From the IMG/VR virus record IMGVR_UViG_2690315815_000009: a stretch of 43,512 nt of DNA. The stretch is one strand, 5' to 3'. The notes beneath the pieces were generated by a model. The model saw nothing but the letters and a program-made list of their open reading frames with translations, did no database searches and was not told the DNA's origin. The position numbers and the translations under genes are program-made. The number at the start of each line of letters is the position of its first letter. The stretch's first letter is position 1. Source of the stretch: a virus. Taxonomy: Duplodnaviria > Heunggongvirae > Uroviricota > Caudoviricetes. Positions 20,171 through 37,728 of this stretch are shown here, one piece after another.

Positions 20171-20650
20171 CTACGCTTCTGAGATAGATTTCTCAGCATT
20201 CACCAATGGAAGTGATTGTGGAACATCCGTTTGACCTGCTGGCCAGCGGTAGCCTGTTACGCGGGAACGAGGAAAAGCTTTGATATTTACTTCATCTGCC
20301 TGGTTGCCCCCCAAAATCATTAAATCCCCGGCGGCATTTTTCCCGACAACAAAGCCGACGTGACCACCGCCAGACCGAGACAGAATAGCAATGCATCCAT
20401 AGGCGGGTTCCTTCAGTTCATTACCCCAATCGAGATAAGAATTCGCAGACTCAAAACGCGTTGAGCGAATACCCGCACGTTCCAGCATTGCCCCGGTGAA
20501 AGCAGCGCACCACGGTGTTTCGTCATCCTTAATGCCGCCGCGTTTGATATCTTTCCAGTACTGCACAATTTCTGCAGCATGTTGCTTCCCTTTCATTTCC
20601 CGAATGCCGAGGTTTTTTCGAGCCTCGATTAGCCATTTAGGATCCGTCAT
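20171..20650 (-). CDS. Putative endolysin (Cys/His peptidoglycan hydrolase, TIGR02594-like)
   Basis: 159 aa directly downstream of two holin-like membrane protein genes; conserved Cys and His (PWCAAF, GGHVGFV) as in CHAP/NlpC-like hydrolases. Confidence 0.55.
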   Translation of the reverse strand: MTDPKWLIEARKNLGIREMKGKQHAAEIVQYWKDIKRGGIKDDETPWCAAFTGAMLERAGIRSTRFESANSYLDWGNELKEPAYGCIAILSRSGGGHVGFVVGKNAAGDLMILGGNQADEVNIKAFPRSRVTGYRWPAGQTDVPQSLPLVNAEKSISEA

Positions 20651-20922
20651 TACCTGTCTCCTGTTATTTTTGAAATATTCCCTCGTGCCCGCCAGACAGC
20701 AATACAGATGGTGAGGTTGAGAAAGAACTCTGCGGGATCAACCTGCGTATATTTCCCGTAAAAAATTCGTAGGGCTATCCACGCAGCAGACAGAATCGCG
20801 AGGTAAGCAGTTAGTGAGATGAAAAAACGATAGCGGCCTGTTTTTTGAAAAAACATCAACCGTAGTGCCAACATCAGACAAATAATTGCATTGGCATTGA
20901 TGAGGACAGAGTGCAGGGTCAT
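20650..20922 (-). CDS. Holin or antiholin-like small membrane protein
   Basis: 90 aa with hydrophobic helices and a charged C-terminus; start overlaps the upstream holin stop. Confidence 0.45.
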   Translation of the reverse strand: MTLHSVLINANAIICLMLALRLMFFQKTGRYRFFISLTAYLAILSAAWIALRIFYGKYTQVDPAEFFLNLTICIAVWRARGNISKITGDR

Positions 20923-21305
20923 TATTTCATCCCCTTATCTGATTTCCATAAACGAGCTTGTGACATGATCCGCAACAGTGATGTAACGCTGATTACTGAT
21001 GCAACCAGTGCACCAATGGCGGGAGAGACTTTTACTGTTACGGGAGGGTTCAGGTGACTCAGCACCGCGTTCAGAATACCGGTAATGATGGCTGACGCTG
21101 TCTCAGCGCAATACACACCGCCAACAAACGAAATGAGTGCGAAAATAACCTGCTTCCAGAATCGATGCTGCCCGGACGACAACACATAGAGAGCTGCGCC
21201 TGCCAGCGCACAGATCATCACTGCAGGTGTTGCCTCAGGAAATAACGCAGCAAACGTCACCCCCGCCGAGCCAGCAGCAACGCCAGCGGTTAGAGGTTCA
21301 GACAT
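20922..21305 (-). CDS. Putative holin
   Basis: Membrane protein with about 3 TM segments. I place the start at ATG 21305 (AGGA 7 nt upstream) rather than at 21386 in the ORF track, because the terminator hairpin lies inside the longer version. Confidence 0.5.
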   Translation of the reverse strand: MSEPLTAGVAAGSAGVTFAALFPEATPAVMICALAGAALYVLSSGQHRFWKQVIFALISFVGGVYCAETASAIITGILNAVLSHLNPPVTVKVSPAIGALVASVISVTSLLRIMSQARLWKSDKGMK

Positions 21306-21319
21306 GATTTTTCCTGATT

Positions 21320-21349
21320 CAGAAACGACAAAACCCCGCCGTGGCGAGG
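21320..21349 (-). terminator. Rho-independent terminator downstream of the Q-like gene (tR'-like)
   Basis: Minus-strand RNA CCUCGC-CACG-GCGGGG (6-bp stem with G-U, tetraloop) followed by UUUUGUCGUUUCUG; the plus-strand equivalent would have a C-A mismatch. Confidence 0.4.
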
Positions 21350-21417
21350 TTCTTAGAAATTTGGCAACATACCAAATTAGCGTCAAATATGGCCTATTTT
21401 GTTCGTTTTTGCAAGCA

Positions 21418-23365: not shown

Positions 23366-23884
23366 ATGAGTGTGCCGCAAACAAAAGCTGAACTGCTTTT
23401 AGCTATTGATAAAAATTTTAGTAAATTAATTAGTTACCTCAACACAATCCCACCAGAAATTACTTCAGATAAATCAATGGACGGACACGCCAAAGGAACG
23501 GAGATGAGTGTTCGTGATCTCGTTTCGTATCTGCTTGGATGGAATGCTCTTGTTGTAAAGTGGATCGCTTCTGATGCTAAAGGTCTGCCTGTCGATTTTC
23601 CGGAAACTGGCTATAAATGGAATCAGCTTGGCCTTCTTGCTCAAAAATTTTACTCAGATTACAGTGAGTTAAGTTATGAGTTGTTAGTAGCTGAACTTCA
23701 GACTGTAAAAAATGAGATTGTGAACCTTATTAATGATCGTACCGATGATATTTTGTATGGAAGACCATGGTACACAAAATGGACGATGGGGAGAATGATC
23801 TCATTTAACACATCTTCGCCTTACGCCAACGCTAATGGAAGATTAAGAAAGTGGGCAAAAAATAATAATATCAGTTTAAAGTAA
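23366..23884 (+). CDS. ClbS/DfsB-family protein (DUF1706), passenger gene of the IS
   Basis: 172 aa; pattern GHAKGT..SV.DLVSYLLGW ... YGRPWYTKWTMGRMISFNTSSPYANANGRLRKW resembles the colibactin self-resistance protein ClbS family; GAGGGAA SD upstream. Confidence 0.7.
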   Translation: MSVPQTKAELLLAIDKNFSKLISYLNTIPPEITSDKSMDGHAKGTEMSVRDLVSYLLGWNALVVKWIASDAKGLPVDFPETGYKWNQLGLLAQKFYSDYSELSYELLVAELQTVKNEIVNLINDRTDDILYGRPWYTKWTMGRMISFNTSSPYANANGRLRKWAKNNNISLK

Positions 23885-23902
23885 GCTTCAGAATGAAATT
23901 AT

Positions 23903-25123
23903 ATGGACGAAAAATCCCTCTATGCCCATATCCTTAACCTGACTGCACCATGGCAGGTTAAATCCCTTACCCTCGATGAAAATGCAGGTTCCGTTACTGT
24001 TACAGTCGGAATTGCTGAAAATACTCAGTTAACCTGTCCGACCTGCAGGAAATCCTGTTCTGTTCACGATCACCGACATCGTAAATGGCGCCACCTTGAT
24101 ACCTGCCAGTTCATGACATTAGTAGAAGCCGATGTTCCCCGCGTTATGTGCCCGGAGCATGGCTGCCAGACTCTGCCTGTACCGTGGGCAGGTTCCGGCA
24201 GTCGGTACACTCTGCTGTTCGAATCGTTCGTGCTCTCATGGCTTAAAATCAGCACCGTTGATGCGGTCAGAAAACAACTTAAACTTAGCTGGAATGCCGT
24301 TGACGGCATCATGACCCGCGCGGTTAAGCGAGGCCTGTCGCGGATTAAAAAGCCTTTATCAGTGCGTCATATGAATGTAGACGAAGTCGCCTTTAAAAAA
24401 GGGCATAGGTATATAACCGTGGTATCTGATCGCGACGGGCGGGCACTGGCATTAACCGATGATCGTGGCACAGAGAGTCTTGCCAGCTATCTCCGTTCGC
24501 TTACTGACAGTCAGTTGTTGGCCATCAAAACACTGTCGATGGACATGAATGCGGGCTATATAAGAGCAGCGCGTATCCATTTACCCAATGCGGTCGAGAA
24601 AATCGCCTTCGATCGCTTCCATGTGGCGAAGCAACTGGGCGAAGTGGTTGATAAAACCCGCCAGAATGAACATCCGCACCTCCCTGTTGAAAGTCGTCGT
24701 CAGGCCAAAGGTACCCGCTTCCTGTGGCAGTACAGCGACAAATGGATGACTGAGTCCCGGCAGGAAAAGCTGATGTGGTTGCGGGAACAGATGCAACAGA
24801 CAAGCCAGTGCTGGACACTGAAAGAGCTGGCAAAAAATATCTGGGATCGCCCCTGGAGCACAGAACGCAGGAATGACTGGTTGCAGTGGATATCGCTGGC
24901 GTCTGAATGTGATGTGCCGATGATGAAAAACGCAGCGAAAACCATTAAAAAACGGTTATACGGAATACTGAATGCAATGCGTCATCGCGTCTCGAATGGA
25001 AATGCGGAGGCGCTGAACAGCAAGATCAGACTGCTGAGGATAAAGGCCAGGGGATACCGAAACCGGGAACGCTTTAAACTGGGAGTTATGTTCCACTATG
25101 GGAAACTGAATATGGCGTACTGA
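23903..25123 (+). CDS. ISL3-family transposase
   Basis: 406 aa; N-terminal Cys/His zinc-finger-like region (CPTCRKSCSVHDHRHRKWRHLD...CPEHGC) and C-terminal NAEALNSKIRLLRIKARGYRNRERFK typical of ISL3 transposases. Confidence 0.85.
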   Translation: MDEKSLYAHILNLTAPWQVKSLTLDENAGSVTVTVGIAENTQLTCPTCRKSCSVHDHRHRKWRHLDTCQFMTLVEADVPRVMCPEHGCQTLPVPWAGSGSRYTLLFESFVLSWLKISTVDAVRKQLKLSWNAVDGIMTRAVKRGLSRIKKPLSVRHMNVDEVAFKKGHRYITVVSDRDGRALALTDDRGTESLASYLRSLTDSQLLAIKTLSMDMNAGYIRAARIHLPNAVEKIAFDRFHVAKQLGEVVDKTRQNEHPHLPVESRRQAKGTRFLWQYSDKWMTESRQEKLMWLREQMQQTSQCWTLKELAKNIWDRPWSTERRNDWLQWISLASECDVPMMKNAAKTIKKRLYGILNAMRHRVSNGNAEALNSKIRLLRIKARGYRNRERFKLGVMFHYGKLNMAY

Positions 25124-25276: not shown

Positions 25277-25918
25277 TTATTTATCACTCCTGTAAATTGG
25301 AATTAACCATTTTCTAATCGTCGACGCTGCAGGTGGGTCAGAGTATTTCGCCACAAAAATACCGGATATGTATTGCACGCCACGCGATAATGGCGCTGTC
25401 GGGTTTTCAGTAAAAAAACGATCAGCCAGTTCAATGGCTTCGCTTTTTAATCTGTGCTGTGGTCGTCCTCCGCCCTTTGTTCCCAGGTATCGCGCCAGTT
25501 GTTTGAAACGGTAGGCGATGATTAACGGTCGCATCATCATATTGAAAAAATCGCGGGCATCGTTGTCAGCGCCTTGCGCTATCAACAGTGCAAAAAACAG
25601 ATACGGGATTATGTACACTTCAGGAGATATACGAACCCGTTCACAAGTTGGTGGAGCCAACTCAATAAGTAAGTCAGCCAGCGGATTCCCCTTTTCTCCA
25701 CGTTTGTAATAGCGATACAGCGGCCCGATATCAAGTTCACTCACGTCGATTTCAGGATGCCCGGCAACGACTGTACGTATCTCTTCTGCCAGAGCGTCAA
25801 ATATTGCCCCGGTCCGTTCAAGATAGAGCCTCCGGGTCGAACCGCGATCATCCAACGCCCGTAACATATCTAACCGGCTAACGAAAGTTTCAGGCCAGTC
25901 CTCATAGAAGGTTTTCAT
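25277..25918 (-). CDS. Hypothetical protein (accessory gene next to the IS)
   Basis: 213 aa from ATG 25918 (GAGGT SD 4 nt upstream); the ORF track extends to 25954. No family recognised. Confidence 0.4.
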   Translation of the reverse strand: MKTFYEDWPETFVSRLDMLRALDDRGSTRRLYLERTGAIFDALAEEIRTVVAGHPEIDVSELDIGPLYRYYKRGEKGNPLADLLIELAPPTCERVRISPEVYIIPYLFFALLIAQGADNDARDFFNMMMRPLIIAYRFKQLARYLGTKGGGRPQHRLKSEAIELADRFFTENPTAPLSRGVQYISGIFVAKYSDPPAASTIRKWLIPIYRSDK

Positions 25919-26161
25919 AATTACCTCGAATAATAAAAACTGCACTATTTGCACAATTTATTATTCGTTTTCACGCCGCTGAGTTCTATAAAAAAGAAAA
26001 AACCTCCGAGGCAGGGTTTTGTTATGGCTCGTTAAATCATCATCCAACTTTTTAGACTGAACGGTGATACTTGCAAATATTTGAAAATATGGGCTGGAAC
26101 CCTATCTTATGATGTGCCTGGTAATTTATATTGTTGGGTCTTTATATCATGAGGAATCACT

Positions 26162-26395
26162 ATGGGTACGTTAGGCAACCAGCCGTGCAGAAGTCGTTAT
26201 GAGTTCGATGATTTTAATTTAGCCAATCGAGCTGCGGCTCTTACTAAGTTAGCAAAAGAAACTGGTGTATCGGTGGATACCTTAATCAAACTTGAAATTG
26301 CTATGCAACTGAATCGGCTCAACTCCATCCTTATCGAAAACGGTGACAAGATGGACGAGAATCTGGCAGGTATTGGCGAGATACTGCAGAAGTGA
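26162..26395 (+). CDS. Hypothetical small protein
   Basis: 77 aa with GAGGAA SD; followed by a terminator-like hairpin. Confidence 0.35.
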   Translation: MGTLGNQPCRSRYEFDDFNLANRAAALTKLAKETGVSVDTLIKLEIAMQLNRLNSILIENGDKMDENLAGIGEILQK

Positions 26396-26420: not shown

Positions 26421-26694
26421 CACATTTAAAATATTAAGGGCGGTCTTCTTCACGTACACAGTCACCTGGTCGAATCGTTCACGCATACTGAGTACAAAAA
26501 ATCTCAACGATAAGATCAGGTTAGACCTGTATTTTCCAGAAACATATAGACGCCTAAAAAAACACTAAACTCATGATTATCATGTATGTTTTTACTGGAA
26601 ACATTGAACCATCCACAATACAGCGTAAAAAGCAAGCAATTCACAAGATTTTAAAGTGATTTATCTGGAAGACTTTACTACTAACAGTTAATAT

Positions 26695-26738
26695 CGTACC
26701 AGAAGTGCAGAATTTGCACTTTTACAGGAATGTGGTAC
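26695..26738. promoter_or_regulatory. Nested palindrome upstream of the ImmA/IrrE operon (candidate operator)
   Basis: AGTGCA-GAATT-TGCACT perfect inverted repeat (26704-26720) nested within GTACC...GGTAC, about 75 nt upstream of the start codon. Confidence 0.3.
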
Positions 26739-26793
26739 GGAACATGCTGTCTATATTTCAACCAATAATCGTAATGCAGTAACTGGAGGAGCT

Positions 26794-27282
26794 ATGGCTA
26801 CCAACCCAAGAGAGCACGCCCGGCGAGTGCTGGACACGTTCTGGTGCGGGCGTGGTTTCCCTGTTGATCCAGCGAAAATTGCTCACGACATGGGATTAGA
26901 TGTTTTTATTACCGATCTTCCTGGGAAAGTTTCTGGCGCACTGATTAAACAAAAAGATCAAGATCCAGCGATCTTTCTAAACAGTGATGACAACAAAGTT
27001 CGTCAACGTTTTTCATGTGGGCATGAGTTGGGGCATTACATCGCCCGGCAAGCATCGCATAGCGATGAATATGAGTACGTTGATTTACGTGGCGAAACCG
27101 CAAGCGCCGGAACGCATCCTGATGAAATTTTTGCAAACAAGTTCGCAGCAGAACTTCTGATGCCGGTAGATGAGGTCAGAAAACTGCACGCTGACGGTCA
27201 ACCAAGTTATATAATGGCGCATTATTTTGGCGTATCTGACGATGCGATGACTTATCGTTTAAAGAACTTGAGGTTGGGGTAA
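26794..27282 (+). CDS. ImmA/IrrE-family metallo-endopeptidase (COG2856)
   Basis: 162 aa with HEXXH motif (CGHELGHYI) and downstream FANKFAAELLMP, characteristic of ImmA/IrrE; strong GGAGGA SD. Confidence 0.8.
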   Translation: MATNPREHARRVLDTFWCGRGFPVDPAKIAHDMGLDVFITDLPGKVSGALIKQKDQDPAIFLNSDDNKVRQRFSCGHELGHYIARQASHSDEYEYVDLRGETASAGTHPDEIFANKFAAELLMPVDEVRKLHADGQPSYIMAHYFGVSDDAMTYRLKNLRLG

Positions 27283-27291
27283 CGCTTTAAA

Positions 27292-27897
27292 ATGCCATCG
27301 GATGACGATTTTAACAGCCGTTTCAAACAGGAAGTAGCACGCAGACTGAAGGATTCCCTCAACCTACACCGTCAGTTAGCAGAAGAGGTTGAGCCGGAGG
27401 ACGATGAAACTCCGGTTCAGTCTCCTGACGAAGCTTCACCTCAGCCAAAGGTTTCGCACGCCCCCAAAAAAACGGCTGTCCGTATTCGCGGAATAGCCAG
27501 AAAAAGAGCTGCCGAAGCTCGCAAAATGGCTGTAGCTGCGTCTAGCAAAAGAATTCCAACTGCTACACCCTCTCAACAAGTCACCCGTACTGAGAGTAAA
27601 ATCTTGACCGAGTTCACATCTGTGAAACAGGTGAATTCACTTGATACCGAGCATGAGCGCAAACAACTCAACAACAAAGATTTTGAAGCAGAAATCGCTC
27701 TAAAAAAACGATACGGGAAATGGTTCCTGATTATCCTTGCTTTCCAACTTCTGATAATGAATGGTGTATTTATTGCCGACGGCGCAGGTAAGCTGGAATT
27801 TGAGGATTTAACACTACAGTTGTACATGGGCGGTACTTTGACAGAGGTATTCGGCCTCGTGCTGGTCGTGACAAAATACCTTTTTAAACGCAAGTAA
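27292..27897 (+). CDS. Membrane-anchored protein of unknown function, co-transcribed with the ImmA/IrrE peptidase
   Basis: 201 aa; basic, probably disordered N-terminal two-thirds, then two C-terminal hydrophobic helices (WFLIILAFQLLIMNGVFIA, TLTEVFGLVLVVTKYLF); starts 10 nt after the ImmA stop. Confidence 0.55.
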   Translation: MPSDDDFNSRFKQEVARRLKDSLNLHRQLAEEVEPEDDETPVQSPDEASPQPKVSHAPKKTAVRIRGIARKRAAEARKMAVAASSKRIPTATPSQQVTRTESKILTEFTSVKQVNSLDTEHERKQLNNKDFEAEIALKKRYGKWFLIILAFQLLIMNGVFIADGAGKLEFEDLTLQLYMGGTLTEVFGLVLVVTKYLFKRK

Positions 27898-27921
27898 CTC
27901 TCTCGGTCCAACAGTCTTTCG

Positions 27922-27943
27922 AAGGCCCTGATCAAAGGGCCTT
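27922..27943 (+). terminator. Terminator-like hairpin after the ImmA/membrane-protein operon
   Basis: AAGGCCCT-GATCA-AGGGCCTT (8-bp stem) 25 nt after the stop codon. Confidence 0.4.
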
Positions 27944-28359: not shown

Positions 28360-29058
28360 TTATATTTTTCCATATTTTTTTCCGTCAAATCGAATCATGC
28401 CAGGATCAAGAAAATTAATTAAATCGATTAACGCGTGCTGTATTCTGATTAGCCTTTCTTTATAAATTCCGATATCTCTTGTCATATTTATCACTTCATT
28501 GTTTAAATCTAAAAAAAATGGCTCATTGATAAAGCAATTTTCCTTTGTGAAACTGCCGTAACCTATGCAATCAAATCCAGTATCTGTTGATATCAGCATC
28601 TTTTCTGCAATAGCTCTCTGCTCTCCTATGAAAAACATAAAATACTGACCAAAGACGTCTGTTTGGATTAATGAGTTAATATTGTTCTGTAATCTAATAA
28701 ACTCCCTCATTTTTTTATTTTTTTCTAGGCTAAGGTATTGAATGTCTATGCGGGCAGCTTCTGTCCATGCAAAAAACTGGGAAAAAAGAAAAACAGTATT
28801 GTTGATAACATAATCTTGTTGGCGCTTATTCCCATTATGATAAAACTCTTCAATGAACCCCAATTCTAATATATTATAAATACGGCTTTGTAAGTCTGAA
28901 GCTGAGCGAATTAACGGTTCAATATAGTACTGATGTTTTCTCCTTACATCCAGTGATTCATTGAGCTTGTTTATTCTATTCTGATTATAAGTAGATATAG
29001 CAATAGAGATTATAGCTATTGCACCACTAATAAAGCTTGAAATTAATGCCGTACCCAT
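28360..29058 (-). CDS. Membrane-anchored protein of unknown function in a very AT-rich island
   Basis: 232 aa with one N-terminal TM helix (LISSFISGAIAIISIAIS) and an Asn/Ile/Lys-rich soluble domain; codon usage and GC content far below the phage backbone. Confidence 0.5.
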   Translation of the reverse strand: MGTALISSFISGAIAIISIAISTYNQNRINKLNESLDVRRKHQYYIEPLIRSASDLQSRIYNILELGFIEEFYHNGNKRQQDYVINNTVFLFSQFFAWTEAARIDIQYLSLEKNKKMREFIRLQNNINSLIQTDVFGQYFMFFIGEQRAIAEKMLISTDTGFDCIGYGSFTKENCFINEPFFLDLNNEVINMTRDIGIYKERLIRIQHALIDLINFLDPGMIRFDGKKYGKI

Positions 29059-31242: not shown

Positions 31243-31319
31243 TTTATATGGGCGGTACTTTGACAGAGGTATTCGGTCTCGTGCTGGTCGTGGTCAAATA
31301 CCTTTTTAAGCGCAAATAG
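31243..31319 (+). repeat. Duplicated copy of the 3' end of the 27292..27897 gene (about 93 percent identical over about 72 nt)
   Basis: ATGGGCGGTACTTTGACAGAGGTATTCGG(T/C)CTCGTGCTGGTCGTG...TACCTTTTTAA(G/A)CGCAA(A/G)TA(G/A) occurs at both 27826-27897 and 31248-31319. Confidence 0.6.
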
Positions 31320-31343: not shown

Positions 31344-32180
31344 TCAAAATGCTGAATTAGCAACGGATATAGCCGACTTTTTCCCCATTACCATCAATTT
31401 ATCCAGTGTCATACTTCGCAGATTGTCGCTGTGGATCACCAGATACCCTGCCCGCTCAGCGATCTCTTTGAAAGCGTCAAAGGTCATCAGATGTTCGCCT
31501 TTGGCAACATGGCGCATCCCGGTCACTTTTCCATTTTTGATAGTGGTGATAAAAGAAAAATCTGGAATGGTTGGGTGATTTTCATCGAGTAGCAGGCAGT
31601 GGATGTATTCAATCGCCTCTAACATTTGCGTCTGTGACAGTTGTTCTATGTGAGAGACGGCGAAGCGTTGATGAATCATGGTGTAGGCATCGGGATACAT
31701 CATGCCTTTCTTGCCGACCAGTATATTAACGGCATCACGCAAGGGAGTACGGTCATCGGTAGTTGTACTCCGCCTCTCTGGACGCTGGCTAAAATAACAA
31801 TCTTCCAGCTTTTCGAAAACTTCCCAGGCCTGTTCTGTTTCCAGCATTTTGGCATGGCGAGCTGCGCCGCGTTCTGTCCAGAGAATGAGGGATCGGGTAT
31901 GTTTAGCAACTGACTGACTATCTGTCAGTCTGTTTTTGAAGTCGCGTAATTCATTACCTTCCAGCTTAAAAAAATGCTTTCCTACGACAAATCTGGCGAT
32001 GTTGCGCTTGAAGTTTTGCTGGATACCATTTACTTCCGTGCCATACAAACTGGCAAGCAATTCAGTAGTGATGACGGGAAGTTGGTTATGATGTAGCGGA
32101 GAAAGGGATTCCGCAGATATTTGGACTGTCATCGCAGTGGCCTCACTTAGTGTTTTTTTCATCACCACCAGCGACGCCAA
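31344..32180 (-). CDS. Phage regulatory protein Rha / antirepressor (Rha N-terminal domain plus antirepressor-like C-terminal domain)
   Basis: 278 aa; N-terminal pattern ...NFKRNIARFVVGKHFFKLEGNELRDFK... typical of the Rha family. Confidence 0.6.
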   Translation of the reverse strand: MASLVVMKKTLSEATAMTVQISAESLSPLHHNQLPVITTELLASLYGTEVNGIQQNFKRNIARFVVGKHFFKLEGNELRDFKNRLTDSQSVAKHTRSLILWTERGAARHAKMLETEQAWEVFEKLEDCYFSQRPERRSTTTDDRTPLRDAVNILVGKKGMMYPDAYTMIHQRFAVSHIEQLSQTQMLEAIEYIHCLLLDENHPTIPDFSFITTIKNGKVTGMRHVAKGEHLMTFDAFKEIAERAGYLVIHSDNLRSMTLDKLMVMGKKSAISVANSAF

Positions 32181-32404
32181 TCATCTGGTGGTGAGCTGTG
32201 CAGGGTTGGCGTAACCGGCTAAGTGAACCCGGCGCTTCCACAGAAGCCCCCACACAGCCCACCATAATGCGAATGTGGCCGTGCCTAACACATAAAAAAA
32301 CCGCTAACGCGGCTATGCGTCACTTAGATATCCGGGACGCCAATCCCGGCAACCGATTTTGCGGCTGCGCGGAAACTATAGCCCCGGACTTTTTCTAAGT
32401 CAAT

Positions 32405-36450: not shown

Positions 36451-36927
36451 TCATGCATGGTGGTCTTGCGCAGTGCGTATCACTGCTCCTCGCGTCGCTA
36501 CCAGCGCCGCTATTGCTTCGTCAATTTCCTGAATAGTTAACTCTGGCGCGAAGTGGAGATGTACAGCGTTAATCGCTTCCACCCCTTCTTTTGCCGCCAG
36601 CGTTGCCAGCAAAACGGGATCGCCCGGCGACTCCAGACGTGCCCGCCGTTCTGCGGGTAGCACGGCTTTCATCACACTGGCCAGCACCTGAGTTTTTCGG
36701 CGCGCCGCCGTTGTCTCGCCACGTAACCAGCGAAAGATTTTCTGCCGATTGTTGTTGATGGCTCTCCAGTCCACGTTGCCGTCCGCGTCCTCAAATTCAT
36801 GTAGTCTCAACTCATCATTGCGTCCCTGACTGAACCAGGCCCGGCAGATTTCAATCGTGACGAGTTCCTGCCCTGCCCTTGCCGCCCAGGTCAAAATCTC
36901 TTTTTGTAATTCCTCTTGGTTTTCCAT
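36451..36927 (-). CDS. YdaT-like / CII-like regulatory protein
   Basis: 158 aa following cro; resembles Rac prophage YdaT as I recall it (...NNNRQKIFRWLRGET...). Confidence 0.5.
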   Translation of the reverse strand: MENQEELQKEILTWAARAGQELVTIEICRAWFSQGRNDELRLHEFEDADGNVDWRAINNNRQKIFRWLRGETTAARRKTQVLASVMKAVLPAERRARLESPGDPVLLATLAAKEGVEAINAVHLHFAPELTIQEIDEAIAALVATRGAVIRTAQDHHA

Positions 36928-37299: not shown

Positions 37300-37728
37300 T
37301 TGTATCCTTACGGTATGAACACAAAAACGAAAAACATGGCTTTTGCTAGCCGACTACAACGGATTCTAAAAGACTTAGGCTGGTCTCAATCTGAGTTAGC
37401 TCGCCATATTGGGGTTACGGCTCAATCAGTTCAGGCATGGTGTAATGGGGTAACTCCAAGAAAAGATAAATTAGACAAGCTAGCAAAAGTGACCGGATAC
37501 CCTGTTCATTTTTTCTTCATGAATGAAGGGGAATATTTGGATGAATCCACACTACACCCGGGTAATTACAATCAAGAACTAACCCCGCAAGAACAGGCTC
37601 TACTGCAACTATTCAGAGGACTGCCTGAGAGCGAAAAAAATAAATTAATCAATGAGCTAAAAGAAAAAAGAGAGCACTTCGATCTACTGCTAAAAGAACT
37701 ACTTGAAGCCAAAAACCAGACAAAATAG
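37300..37728 (+). CDS. CI-like repressor (HTH, no obvious S24 peptidase domain)
   Basis: HTH pattern SQSELARHIGVTAQSVQAW; divergent from cro. Track start is TTG 37300; ATG starts at 37315 and 37336 are alternatives; a TACAAT -10-like hexamer at 37288 suggests a short or absent leader. Confidence 0.7.
   Translation: MYPYGMNTKTKNMAFASRLQRILKDLGWSQSELARHIGVTAQSVQAWCNGVTPRKDKLDKLAKVTGYPVHFFFMNEGEYLDESTLHPGNYNQELTPQEQALLQLFRGLPESEKNKLINELKEKREHFDLLLKELLEAKNQTK

Follow-up and report, generated by a model that had tools for sequence, protein, structure and literature searches.

ImmA/IrrE peptidases are understood almost wholly as anti-repressors that cleave proteins of the XRE family. In ImmR/ImmA, which is known from ICEBs1 and from prophages of Gram-positive bacteria, a single-domain M78 peptidase of approximately 160–170 amino acids (aa) is carried on a mobile element and shares an operon with its small cognate partner, a repressor with an XRE-type helix-turn-helix (HTH) domain. 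DdrO is cleaved at L-R, and ImmR at F-M. In CapH/CapP the cleavage site of the substrate is F82-R83; CapH and DdrO, the substrate of IrrE (PprI), are both transcription factors, and the C-terminal GAF domain of CapP/IrrE forms a groove that binds single-stranded DNA (ssDNA), with a cysteine-switch loop present in many CapP proteins. M78 domains also occur in RosmerTA (RmrT/RmrA) and PD-lambda-2, toxin-antitoxin (TA)-like anti-phage modules on mobile elements, in which RmrA and PD-lambda-2B are HTH-peptidase fusions of 360–400 aa with the toxin gene upstream. Here, we examined a two-gene cassette consisting of an ImmA/IrrE peptidase gene and a gene for a small membrane protein (hereafter, the partner), encoded in the Caudoviricetes record IMGVR_UViG_2690315815_000009 of IMG/VR. 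This whole stretch of 43,512 nt, referred to as the window, is a prophage of Escherichia coli. The two-gene module is real, conserved, and apparently undescribed.

The novelty of the pair, already suspected in a first-pass annotation of the window, was supported by the searches. The literature searched, which did not extend to Brenes & Laub 2025 on E. coli prophage defense, held no description of an M78 peptidase combined with a two-transmembrane (TM) protein, nor of either RefSeq accession; the ImmA pair found in the DefensePredictor supplements is another one, ImmA with DUF4411. In PADLOC-DB 2.0, the peptidase matched capP, RmrA, and PDC-M69B through the shared domain alone, and no single described system covered both proteins.

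The peptidase and its membrane partner

The principal features of the cassette are as follows.

26794..27282, + strand: peptidase gene, encoding a single-domain ImmA/IrrE (Peptidase_M78) zinc metallopeptidase of 162 aa (profile match, catalytic residues, and fold)
27283..27291, + strand: intergenic spacer of 9 nt (gene coordinates)
27292..27897, + strand: partner gene, encoding a two-TM membrane protein of 201 aa, the founding member of a new family (AlphaFold2 [AF2] model, hydropathy, and alignments)
E134-x2-L137-K138-K139-x-Y141-G142 of the partner, + strand: juxtamembrane motif (family alignment)
Q152 and N157 in TM1, G164 in the loop, and T182, E185, and G188 in TM2 of the partner, + strand: polar and glycine residues of the membrane hairpin (family alignment)

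The peptidase gene has a GGAGG Shine-Dalgarno sequence 4 nt before its ATG and ends with a TAA codon at 27280–27282; its coordinates and HExxH motif had been given exactly in the first-pass annotation. By profile match, zinc site, and fold, the product is a member of the ImmA/IrrE family. It matched Pfam Peptidase_M78 (PF06114) with an E-value of 7.7e-18 and 64.9 bits against a cutoff of 22, covering positions 3–123 of 123, and in PHROGs it matched the metallo-protease family phrog_87 (3.9e-30). The catalytic residues H77-E78-x-x-H81 and E111, together with the helix L121-L122-M123-P124, were invariant among 43 homologues, and HExxH, E111, and LLMP were retained in all 20 of the loci in which the gene is linked to a partner gene. 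The AF2 model had a predicted local distance difference test score (pLDDT) of 90.8, and the closest folds found with Foldseek were CapP (7t5t, 1.3e-7) and IrrE/PprI (3dte, 1.3e-5, and 8sln), all with a probability of 1.0 and a query TM-score of approximately 0.6, a mycobacterial XRE-peptidase regulator being a further close fold. The PADLOC match to capP (2.4e-25) extended only over profile positions 3–151 of 242. The protein ends where the GAF domain of CapP/IrrE would begin, and it has 162 aa as against the 240–330 aa of the structural targets. It has neither an HTH fusion nor a GAF domain, and the loop between HExxH and the glutamate ligand (residues 86–110, ASHSDEYEYVDLRGETASAGTHPD) contained no cysteine in any of the 20 loci. 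Because the GAF domain and the cysteine switch are both missing, the ssDNA-sensing mechanism of CapP/IrrE does not apply to this peptidase.

The pair resembles ImmR/ImmA in the single-domain architecture of the peptidase, the mobile element, and the small partner in the same operon, but here the partner is a two-TM protein rather than an XRE repressor, and the peptidase gene comes first. CapP and IrrE gave the best sequence and fold matches and have the same zinc site; however, the interdomain ssDNA groove is absent along with the GAF domain and the cysteine-switch loop, no regulated defense operon lies downstream, and the proposed substrate is a membrane protein instead of a transcription factor. 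The lack of an HTH substrate, a GAF domain, and a cysteine switch sets the pair apart from the ImmR/ImmA, DdrO/IrrE, and CapH/CapP modules. It is also distinct from RosmerTA and PD-lambda-2: the RmrA matches were weak (E-values of 5.8e-12 and higher) and confined to the core (approximately 145–295 of 357–400 profile positions), the peptidase is far shorter than the HTH-peptidase fusions and has no HTH domain, and the partner is encoded downstream, is embedded in the membrane, and is unrelated to RmrT, for which there was no PADLOC match.

The partner gene starts with an ATG at 27292, in the same reading frame as the peptidase gene. Its position close downstream agrees with the first-pass annotation, in which the gap was counted as 10 nt instead of the actual 9 nt. 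Among homologous loci, the spacing of the two genes was between −14 and +13 nt in 19 of 20 (71 nt in the remaining one), which suggests that their translation may be coupled. AF2 (22 homologues) placed helices in the partner at residues 4–32, 119–164, and 174–199, whereas residues 33–118 had a pLDDT below 50 and are probably disordered. The first helix is amphipathic, and the linker that follows it is variable. Kyte-Doolittle hydropathy peaked at 2.26 in TM1 (144–163) and 1.56 in TM2 (174–196), in agreement with the modeled helices and with the two C-terminal TM helices originally noticed in this 201-aa protein. The N-terminal region had been described as basic and probably disordered, and this applies to parts of it: residues 48–90 are basic and 33–118 have low pLDDT, but residues 1–47 are acidic or neutral and include the helix at 4–32. 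Given the KKRYGK sequence before TM1, the acidic short loop, and the basic tail KYLFKRK, the predicted topology is N-in/C-in.

Profile searches of both proteins thus gave an M78 domain for the peptidase and no known domain for the partner, which had no match in Pfam (E ≤ 0.1), NCBIfam, or PADLOC; its sole match was PHROG 5346, a family without an assigned function. The PADLOC scan returned nothing but a spurious JetC match (E = 0.051), and a fold search of the partner model against BFVD gave meaningless matches alone (E ≥ 1), as expected for a helical hairpin with disorder. Close homologues in Enterobacterales numbered 48, and a profile search of 1.84 billion representatives recovered 686 clusters at E ≤ 1e−3 and 180 at E ≤ 1e−10, so that the family comprises approximately 690 clusters when counted at 50% identity. 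The 150 best-scoring proteins listed from these 686 clusters were all small (49–236 aa), and in each the stretch homologous to the partner was C-terminal or close to the C-terminus. Mean pairwise identity among the enterobacterial partners was 0.45 in the N-terminal helix, 0.14 in the linker, 0.65 in the juxtamembrane helix, 0.74 in TM1, and 0.91 in TM2 with the tail; the linker varied in length from near nothing to approximately 110 residues, and L19, L23, and R27 were conserved in the N-terminal helix. Across 53 diverse members, the juxtamembrane motif was conserved at [D/E]134 (47/53), L137 (51/53), [K/R]138 (53/53), [K/R]139 (43/53), Y141 (49/53), and [A/G]142 (50/53), and Q152, N157, G164, L168, T182, E185, G188, L197, and F198 were invariant or nearly so. 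The conserved Gln, Asn, Thr, and Glu residues within the membrane helices would point to a specific oligomer, a channel, or a membrane target, beyond the role of a passive anchor.

Co-occurrence and co-divergence of the two genes

In a collection with one genome per species, searches anchored on the partner found an ImmA homologue (43–99% identity) directly upstream on the same strand in 10 of 10 loci, which came from Escherichia, Leclercia, Buttiauxella, a gammaproteobacterial metagenome-assembled genome (MAG), Thalassotalea, Gallibacterium, Microbulbifer, Desulfuromonas, a Rhodococcus MAG, and one unclassified MAG. Each of the 13 IMG/VR contigs that encode a complete partner likewise had an ImmA gene upstream, as did two distant partners, P0060 and P0150, the latter in a low-G+C phage in which holin and amidase genes precede the pair. 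Overall, a clade-specific single-domain ImmA gene lay directly upstream in 25 of 26 informative partner-anchored loci, the exception being a gene fusion, P0100, discussed below; one further look-up, with the gene at a contig edge, was uninformative and is outside the 26. When the searches were anchored on the peptidase, 36 viral loci with a clade-level ImmA gene were found (partly on the same contigs as the partner-anchored set), and a partner-family gene came next in 28 of the 35 informative ones, one locus being at a contig edge. In at least four of the other seven, ImmA was followed by an unrelated small open reading frame (ORF) with a C-terminal hydrophobic helix, which suggests a recurrent association of this peptidase clade with small proteins anchored in the membrane. 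These unrelated ORFs (L058:3014-3358, L070:2923-3312, L076:1349-1738, and L068:2980-3174) have a hydrophilic N-terminal part. None of 21 more distant M78 genes had a partner-like neighbor, and some of them had classical XRE neighbors. Peptidase-anchored look-ups in Pectobacterium and Pseudoalteromonas found the partner directly downstream in both.

The two proteins have also diverged together. Identities to the window copy of ImmA and of the C-terminal 90 aa of the partner were, for example, 0.77 and 0.79, 0.52 and 0.54, and 0.44 and 0.48, so that the two diverge in step. No match to an XRE-type HTH came from any of the 81 small ORFs (55–200 aa) lying up to 600 bp from the pair in 31 non-redundant loci, and the flanking ORFs of the window (26162–26395, 25277–25954, and 28360–29058) had no HTH match in Pfam, NCBIfam, or PHROGs, which bears out the earlier observation that no HTH gene is adjacent. 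The 77-aa upstream ORF at 26162–26395 was considered as a hidden HTH partner and rejected, both on the absence of an HTH match and because its distribution differs from that of the cassette: L002 and L024 have the cassette without this ORF, and L033 and L034 have the ORF without the cassette.

The pair was found in a lambdoid nin-region slot, in Mu-like phages with Mor/GemA on one side and the lysis genes on the other, and beside endolysin, holin, or amidase genes; non-phage contexts were chromosomal islets beside sucCD, pheT-ihfA, tufA, and restriction-modification (R-M) genes. In other loci, it adjoins a type IIG R-M enzyme (E = 0), PDC-M11A (3.5e-136), and a Panacea-domain antitoxin. The proposal that this is a self-contained two-gene cassette in the accessory region of a prophage accords with these co-occurrence counts and with the maintenance of the pair across phyla and contexts. 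To judge from the sequences, it is a conserved and horizontally mobile two-gene operon that moves as a unit between unrelated contexts.

Prophage setting and flanking elements

The prophage has a lambdoid early/regulatory region and a myovirus-type tail, and is integrated at a site adjoining the leuZ-cysT-glyW tRNA genes, near pgsA and uvrC. Among 5,426 complete E. coli genomes, 447–458 contained a near-identical prophage, ST131 strains such as JJ1886 being among them. The cassette itself occurred in 458 of the 5,426 (approximately 8%), and the immunity region of the prophage, with near-same distribution, in 449. In the window, the minus strand encodes the structural, lysis, Q, replication, and cro-side genes. 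The cassette lies within an accessory stretch of mixed gene orientation (25.2–32.2 kb), which is bordered by nin-like genes (DUF1367, DUF1364, and Q) and by replication genes. In this prophage, the ImmA-partner operon is a moron transcribed against the early and late phage transcripts, and it is therefore probably expressed in the lysogen.

Sister E. coli prophages carry other genes in the same slot: one has PD-T4-3 (7.9e-138) with an HNH protein (L035:709-2856), and another has a GmrSD_N/NsnA-like protein (4.6e-41; L033:5339-6394). With validated defense genes at this position in sister prophages, the slot between the nin-like genes and the antirepressor gene is a defense hotspot of the prophage lineage. 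The features flanking the cassette are as follows.

26560..26793, + strand: upstream leader/promoter region, which travels with the cassette in Escherichia and is approximately 97% identical in E. whittamii
26704..26720, no strand assigned: palindrome AGTGCA-N5-TGCACT in the 5' leader (sequence match), in Escherichia versions of the cassette only
27922..27943, + strand: GC-rich hairpin with an 8-bp stem, situated 25 nt beyond the stop codon, without a U-tract
31247..31318, + strand: 3' remnant of a second copy of the partner gene, 92% identical to aa 177–201, at the right-hand recombination junction of the slot

The translated remnant ends in LYMGGTLTEVFGLVLVVVKYLFKRK followed by the stop codon. 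An LprI-family gene directly precedes the remnant, and the ORF6N antirepressor gene adjoins it. The remnant opens with an in-frame ATG, giving a mini-ORF of 23 codons that comprises TM2 only. The same 3' remnant stands alone in sister phages L033–L041, where it abuts the ORF6N antirepressor gene at the right border of the slot, with or without the LprI gene between them; the end of the partner gene therefore serves as a junction at which the variable slot has repeatedly recombined.

The leader contained no sigma-70 site scoring ≥9 of 12, and a structural RNA was rejected after Rfam gave no match. The palindrome, which the first-pass annotation had placed upstream of the unit, is indeed there, and it is unique in the window (0.08 occurrences expected by chance), but it is not a conserved part of the unit, being not conserved upstream of the Leclercia and Buttiauxella cassettes. 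On these grounds it was rejected as a conserved operator and, with a single copy in the window, as a CI operator of the prophage; it may be a local operator. Similarly, the hairpin that had been taken for a terminator closing the unit exists as an 8-bp GC-rich stem, but as a canonical intrinsic terminator it was rejected: a U-tract is missing, the terminator scan made no call there, and the folding z-score was only −1.1.

Several other genes of the window were noted. At 32184–32381 (− strand), directly upstream of the ORF6N antirepressor gene (31344–32180), Rfam identified a C4 antisense RNA (75 bits) and isrK (80 bits) with an a1/b1 target motif; control of the antirepressor is of the P1/P7 immI-like antisense type, and the prophage repressor (37300–37728) consists of HTH_3 only, without an S24 domain. 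A DUF1706 gene and an ISL3-family transposase gene (Zn ribbon, HTH, and DDE domains) at 23366–25123 (+ strand) separate the DUF1367 gene from the accessory slot, an insertion that is missing in the otherwise identical prophage of strain SA186 (L001). The ORF at 28360–29058 (− strand) encodes a 232-aa protein with an N-terminal TM helix, which has no Pfam family, belongs to PHROG 5606, and weakly matches the DRT-associated RTasTM in PADLOC (1.7e-5); this protein may represent a further orphan membrane effector within the slot. A YdaT_toxin-family gene (2e-15) lies at 36451–36927 (− strand) in the early right operon beside a cro-like regulator (compare the Rac-type YdaS/YdaT arrangement).

Natural variants of the pair

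Two natural mutants were found. In the E. coli clinical isolate AR_451 (L103:1099-2362), IS1 is inserted at approximately codon 165 of the partner, so that TM2 is cut off, whereas ImmA is intact. In P0100 (L012:2492-2884), which was present in two assemblies, the first ~43 residues of an ImmA are fused in frame to the partner's juxtamembrane motif and hairpin, and the peptidase core is deleted; downstream of this gene lie two genes without annotation as well as TelA and VWA genes. Since both mutants are tolerated, they speak against strict addiction, whichever of the two genes were the toxin, and they mildly favor a protease that activates a dormant effector over one that neutralizes a constitutive toxin. 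IS1 was also found near the cassette in five genomes, where its position downstream of the pair makes it uninformative.

Proposed function and alternative explanations

We would give about an even chance to the explanation that the pair is a protease-gated, holin-like membrane effector module acting in abortive infection or phage exclusion. In this mechanism, the partner, as a small protein of the inner membrane, would take the place of the XRE repressor as the cognate partner or substrate of the cytoplasmic peptidase. Because the hairpin is the conserved core, it would be the effector, and the peptidase its controller. The hairpin would be holin-like, permeabilizing the membrane or forming a channel, and would be restrained by the cytoplasmic region of the partner until a trigger, such as infection by another phage, led the peptidase to cut that region; the cut would then change the activity of the effector and result in exclusion or abortive infection. 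We infer here the interaction of ImmA with the partner and its cleavage, the membrane toxicity, the trigger, and the anti-phage phenotype. Because the known cleavage sites in the peptidase family have Met or a basic residue after a hydrophobic one, L137-[K/R]138, six residues before TM1, is a reasonable candidate for the cleavage site, and it resembles the site in CapH. The conservation of the pair supports the two-gene unit described in the first-pass annotation, for which the protease-gated membrane effector in defense that was raised there would be a candidate function. Induction sensing, the other option raised there, is the weaker of the two because the pair also occurs outside prophages.

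Functional parallels can be drawn, the closest being with prophage exclusion systems of two genes that include a membrane effector. The RexA/RexB system of lambda likewise combines a cytoplasmic component with a small polytopic membrane protein, and in RexAB-type prophage exclusion the membrane protein is thought to depolarize the cell; this likeness is one of function only, as there is no relationship in sequence or fold and the pair has a protease as its cytoplasmic component. The partner shares with class II holins and pinholins the small size, the two TM helices, the N-in/C-in topology, and the basic C-terminal tail, but the partner has no holin family match, has a long cytoplasmic N-terminal extension, and is encoded outside the lysis cassette and in non-phage loci. 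A bolder version of the proposed mechanism, possible but to be regarded as tentative, is a one-step protease-to-pore switch, in which the protease would have changed its target from a repressor bound to DNA to a membrane protein, and juxtamembrane proteolysis would directly turn a dormant hairpin of approximately 60 residues into an ion-conducting or pore-forming oligomer; found in several phyla and in prophages, this would be a new class of defense or exclusion system. It would be conceptually similar to gasdermin activation, with an M78 peptidase and a hairpin in the corresponding roles.

Several observations weigh against a gated effector in defense. The N-terminal region of the partner could not be aligned across the 53 diverse family members, and since it is not conserved family-wide, a model in which it is an inhibitory domain would require recognition by the juxtamembrane motif. 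There were few matches to defense models among 119 larger flanking proteins in the 31 loci, so that the association with defense is suggestive and, outside E. coli, moderate. Several loci are beside lysis genes or between Mu Mor/GemA and lysis genes, a neighborhood equally compatible with a role in lysis timing. A tblastn search with the partner found nothing in 50,697 sequenced phage isolates, and in the plasmid collection it found one record only, a 4.9-Mb E. coli record. Moreover, the direction of control, activation as opposed to neutralization, would be read from only the two natural mutants.

Judged from sequence, the pair has generic traits of type II-like TA systems, namely two genes, tight coupling, horizontal mobility, and a patchy distribution, to which its small size and the order of the genes, with the putative antitoxin first, can be added. 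As a classical TA system, the hairpin would be a constitutive membrane toxin that the peptidase, as the antitoxin, neutralizes by continuous cleavage, with defense or stabilization ensuing once peptidase synthesis stops. M78 domains serve as antitoxins in RosmerTA, one homologue carries the NCBI name "toxin," and orphan clade-level ImmA genes exist (L060 and L064). However, P0100 retains the hairpin and juxtamembrane region without the peptidase core, and a constitutive toxin should not outlive the loss of its antitoxin; in addition, proteases are usually stable, whereas antitoxins are labile, and we regard a TA system of this type as rather unlikely. A smaller chance still attaches to the reverse assignment, in which the peptidase would be a Lit-like effector that cleaves a host or phage protein, and the membrane protein a sensor, anchor, or inhibitor until a signal of membrane perturbation or infection arrives. 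The Xre-peptidase component of PD-lambda-2 is itself toxic, the catalytic residues are all strictly conserved, and the N-terminal helix of the enterobacterial partners (L19, L23, and R27) could be a pseudo-substrate; yet ImmA is intact in the viable strain with the IS1-broken partner, and conservation is strongest within the membrane helices and not in the cytoplasmic region that would bind the protease.

The neighborhood of lysis genes, together with the resemblance to class II holins, raises the prospect of a lysis-timing or superinfection device, in which the partner would be a holin, an antiholin, or pinholin-like and the peptidase would process its N-terminal domain to tune lysis or block DNA entry. 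That the pair occurs in islets beside sucCD, tufA, pheT-ihfA, and R-M genes, that no holin family in Pfam was matched, and that in the window the complete lysis cassette (approximately 20171–21386) is on the other strand, 5 kb from the pair, make this improbable. It is very unlikely that the peptidase is an anti-repressor protease acting in trans on the short XRE repressor of the prophage (37300–37728), with the partner modulating it in induction sensing. ImmA-type proteases classically cleave such repressors, and this one, like ImmR, has HTH_3 only and no S24 autocleavage domain, but it is encoded 10 kb from the pair, the prophage already has the ORF6N antirepressor under C4/isrK antisense control, and in many taxa the pair occurs outside prophages and with no HTH gene nearby. 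The near-identical distribution of the cassette and the immunity region in complete E. coli genomes might be cited in favor of this explanation; however, both mark one clonal prophage lineage, which explains their co-distribution and makes it uninformative as a test. Finally, a chance adjacency of two unrelated genes is scarcely credible, given the conservation across phyla and contexts, the in-step divergence, and the overlapping or closely spaced coding regions.

Implications

Candidate defense pairs of this general kind are now numerous. If the proposed function is correct, the cassette, which occurs in the pandemic E. coli ST131 lineage, would be a compact candidate immune or exclusion module of approximately 1.1 kb and a simple and tractable model for the proteolytic control of a membrane effector. 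At present, no model in Pfam, NCBIfam, or PADLOC covers the partner family, and defining its approximately 690 clusters would give an annotation to many hypothetical proteins. Furthermore, a large clade of ImmA/IrrE peptidases that is broadly spread in phylogeny and obligately coupled to a membrane hairpin would widen the substrate logic of the family beyond XRE-type repressors.

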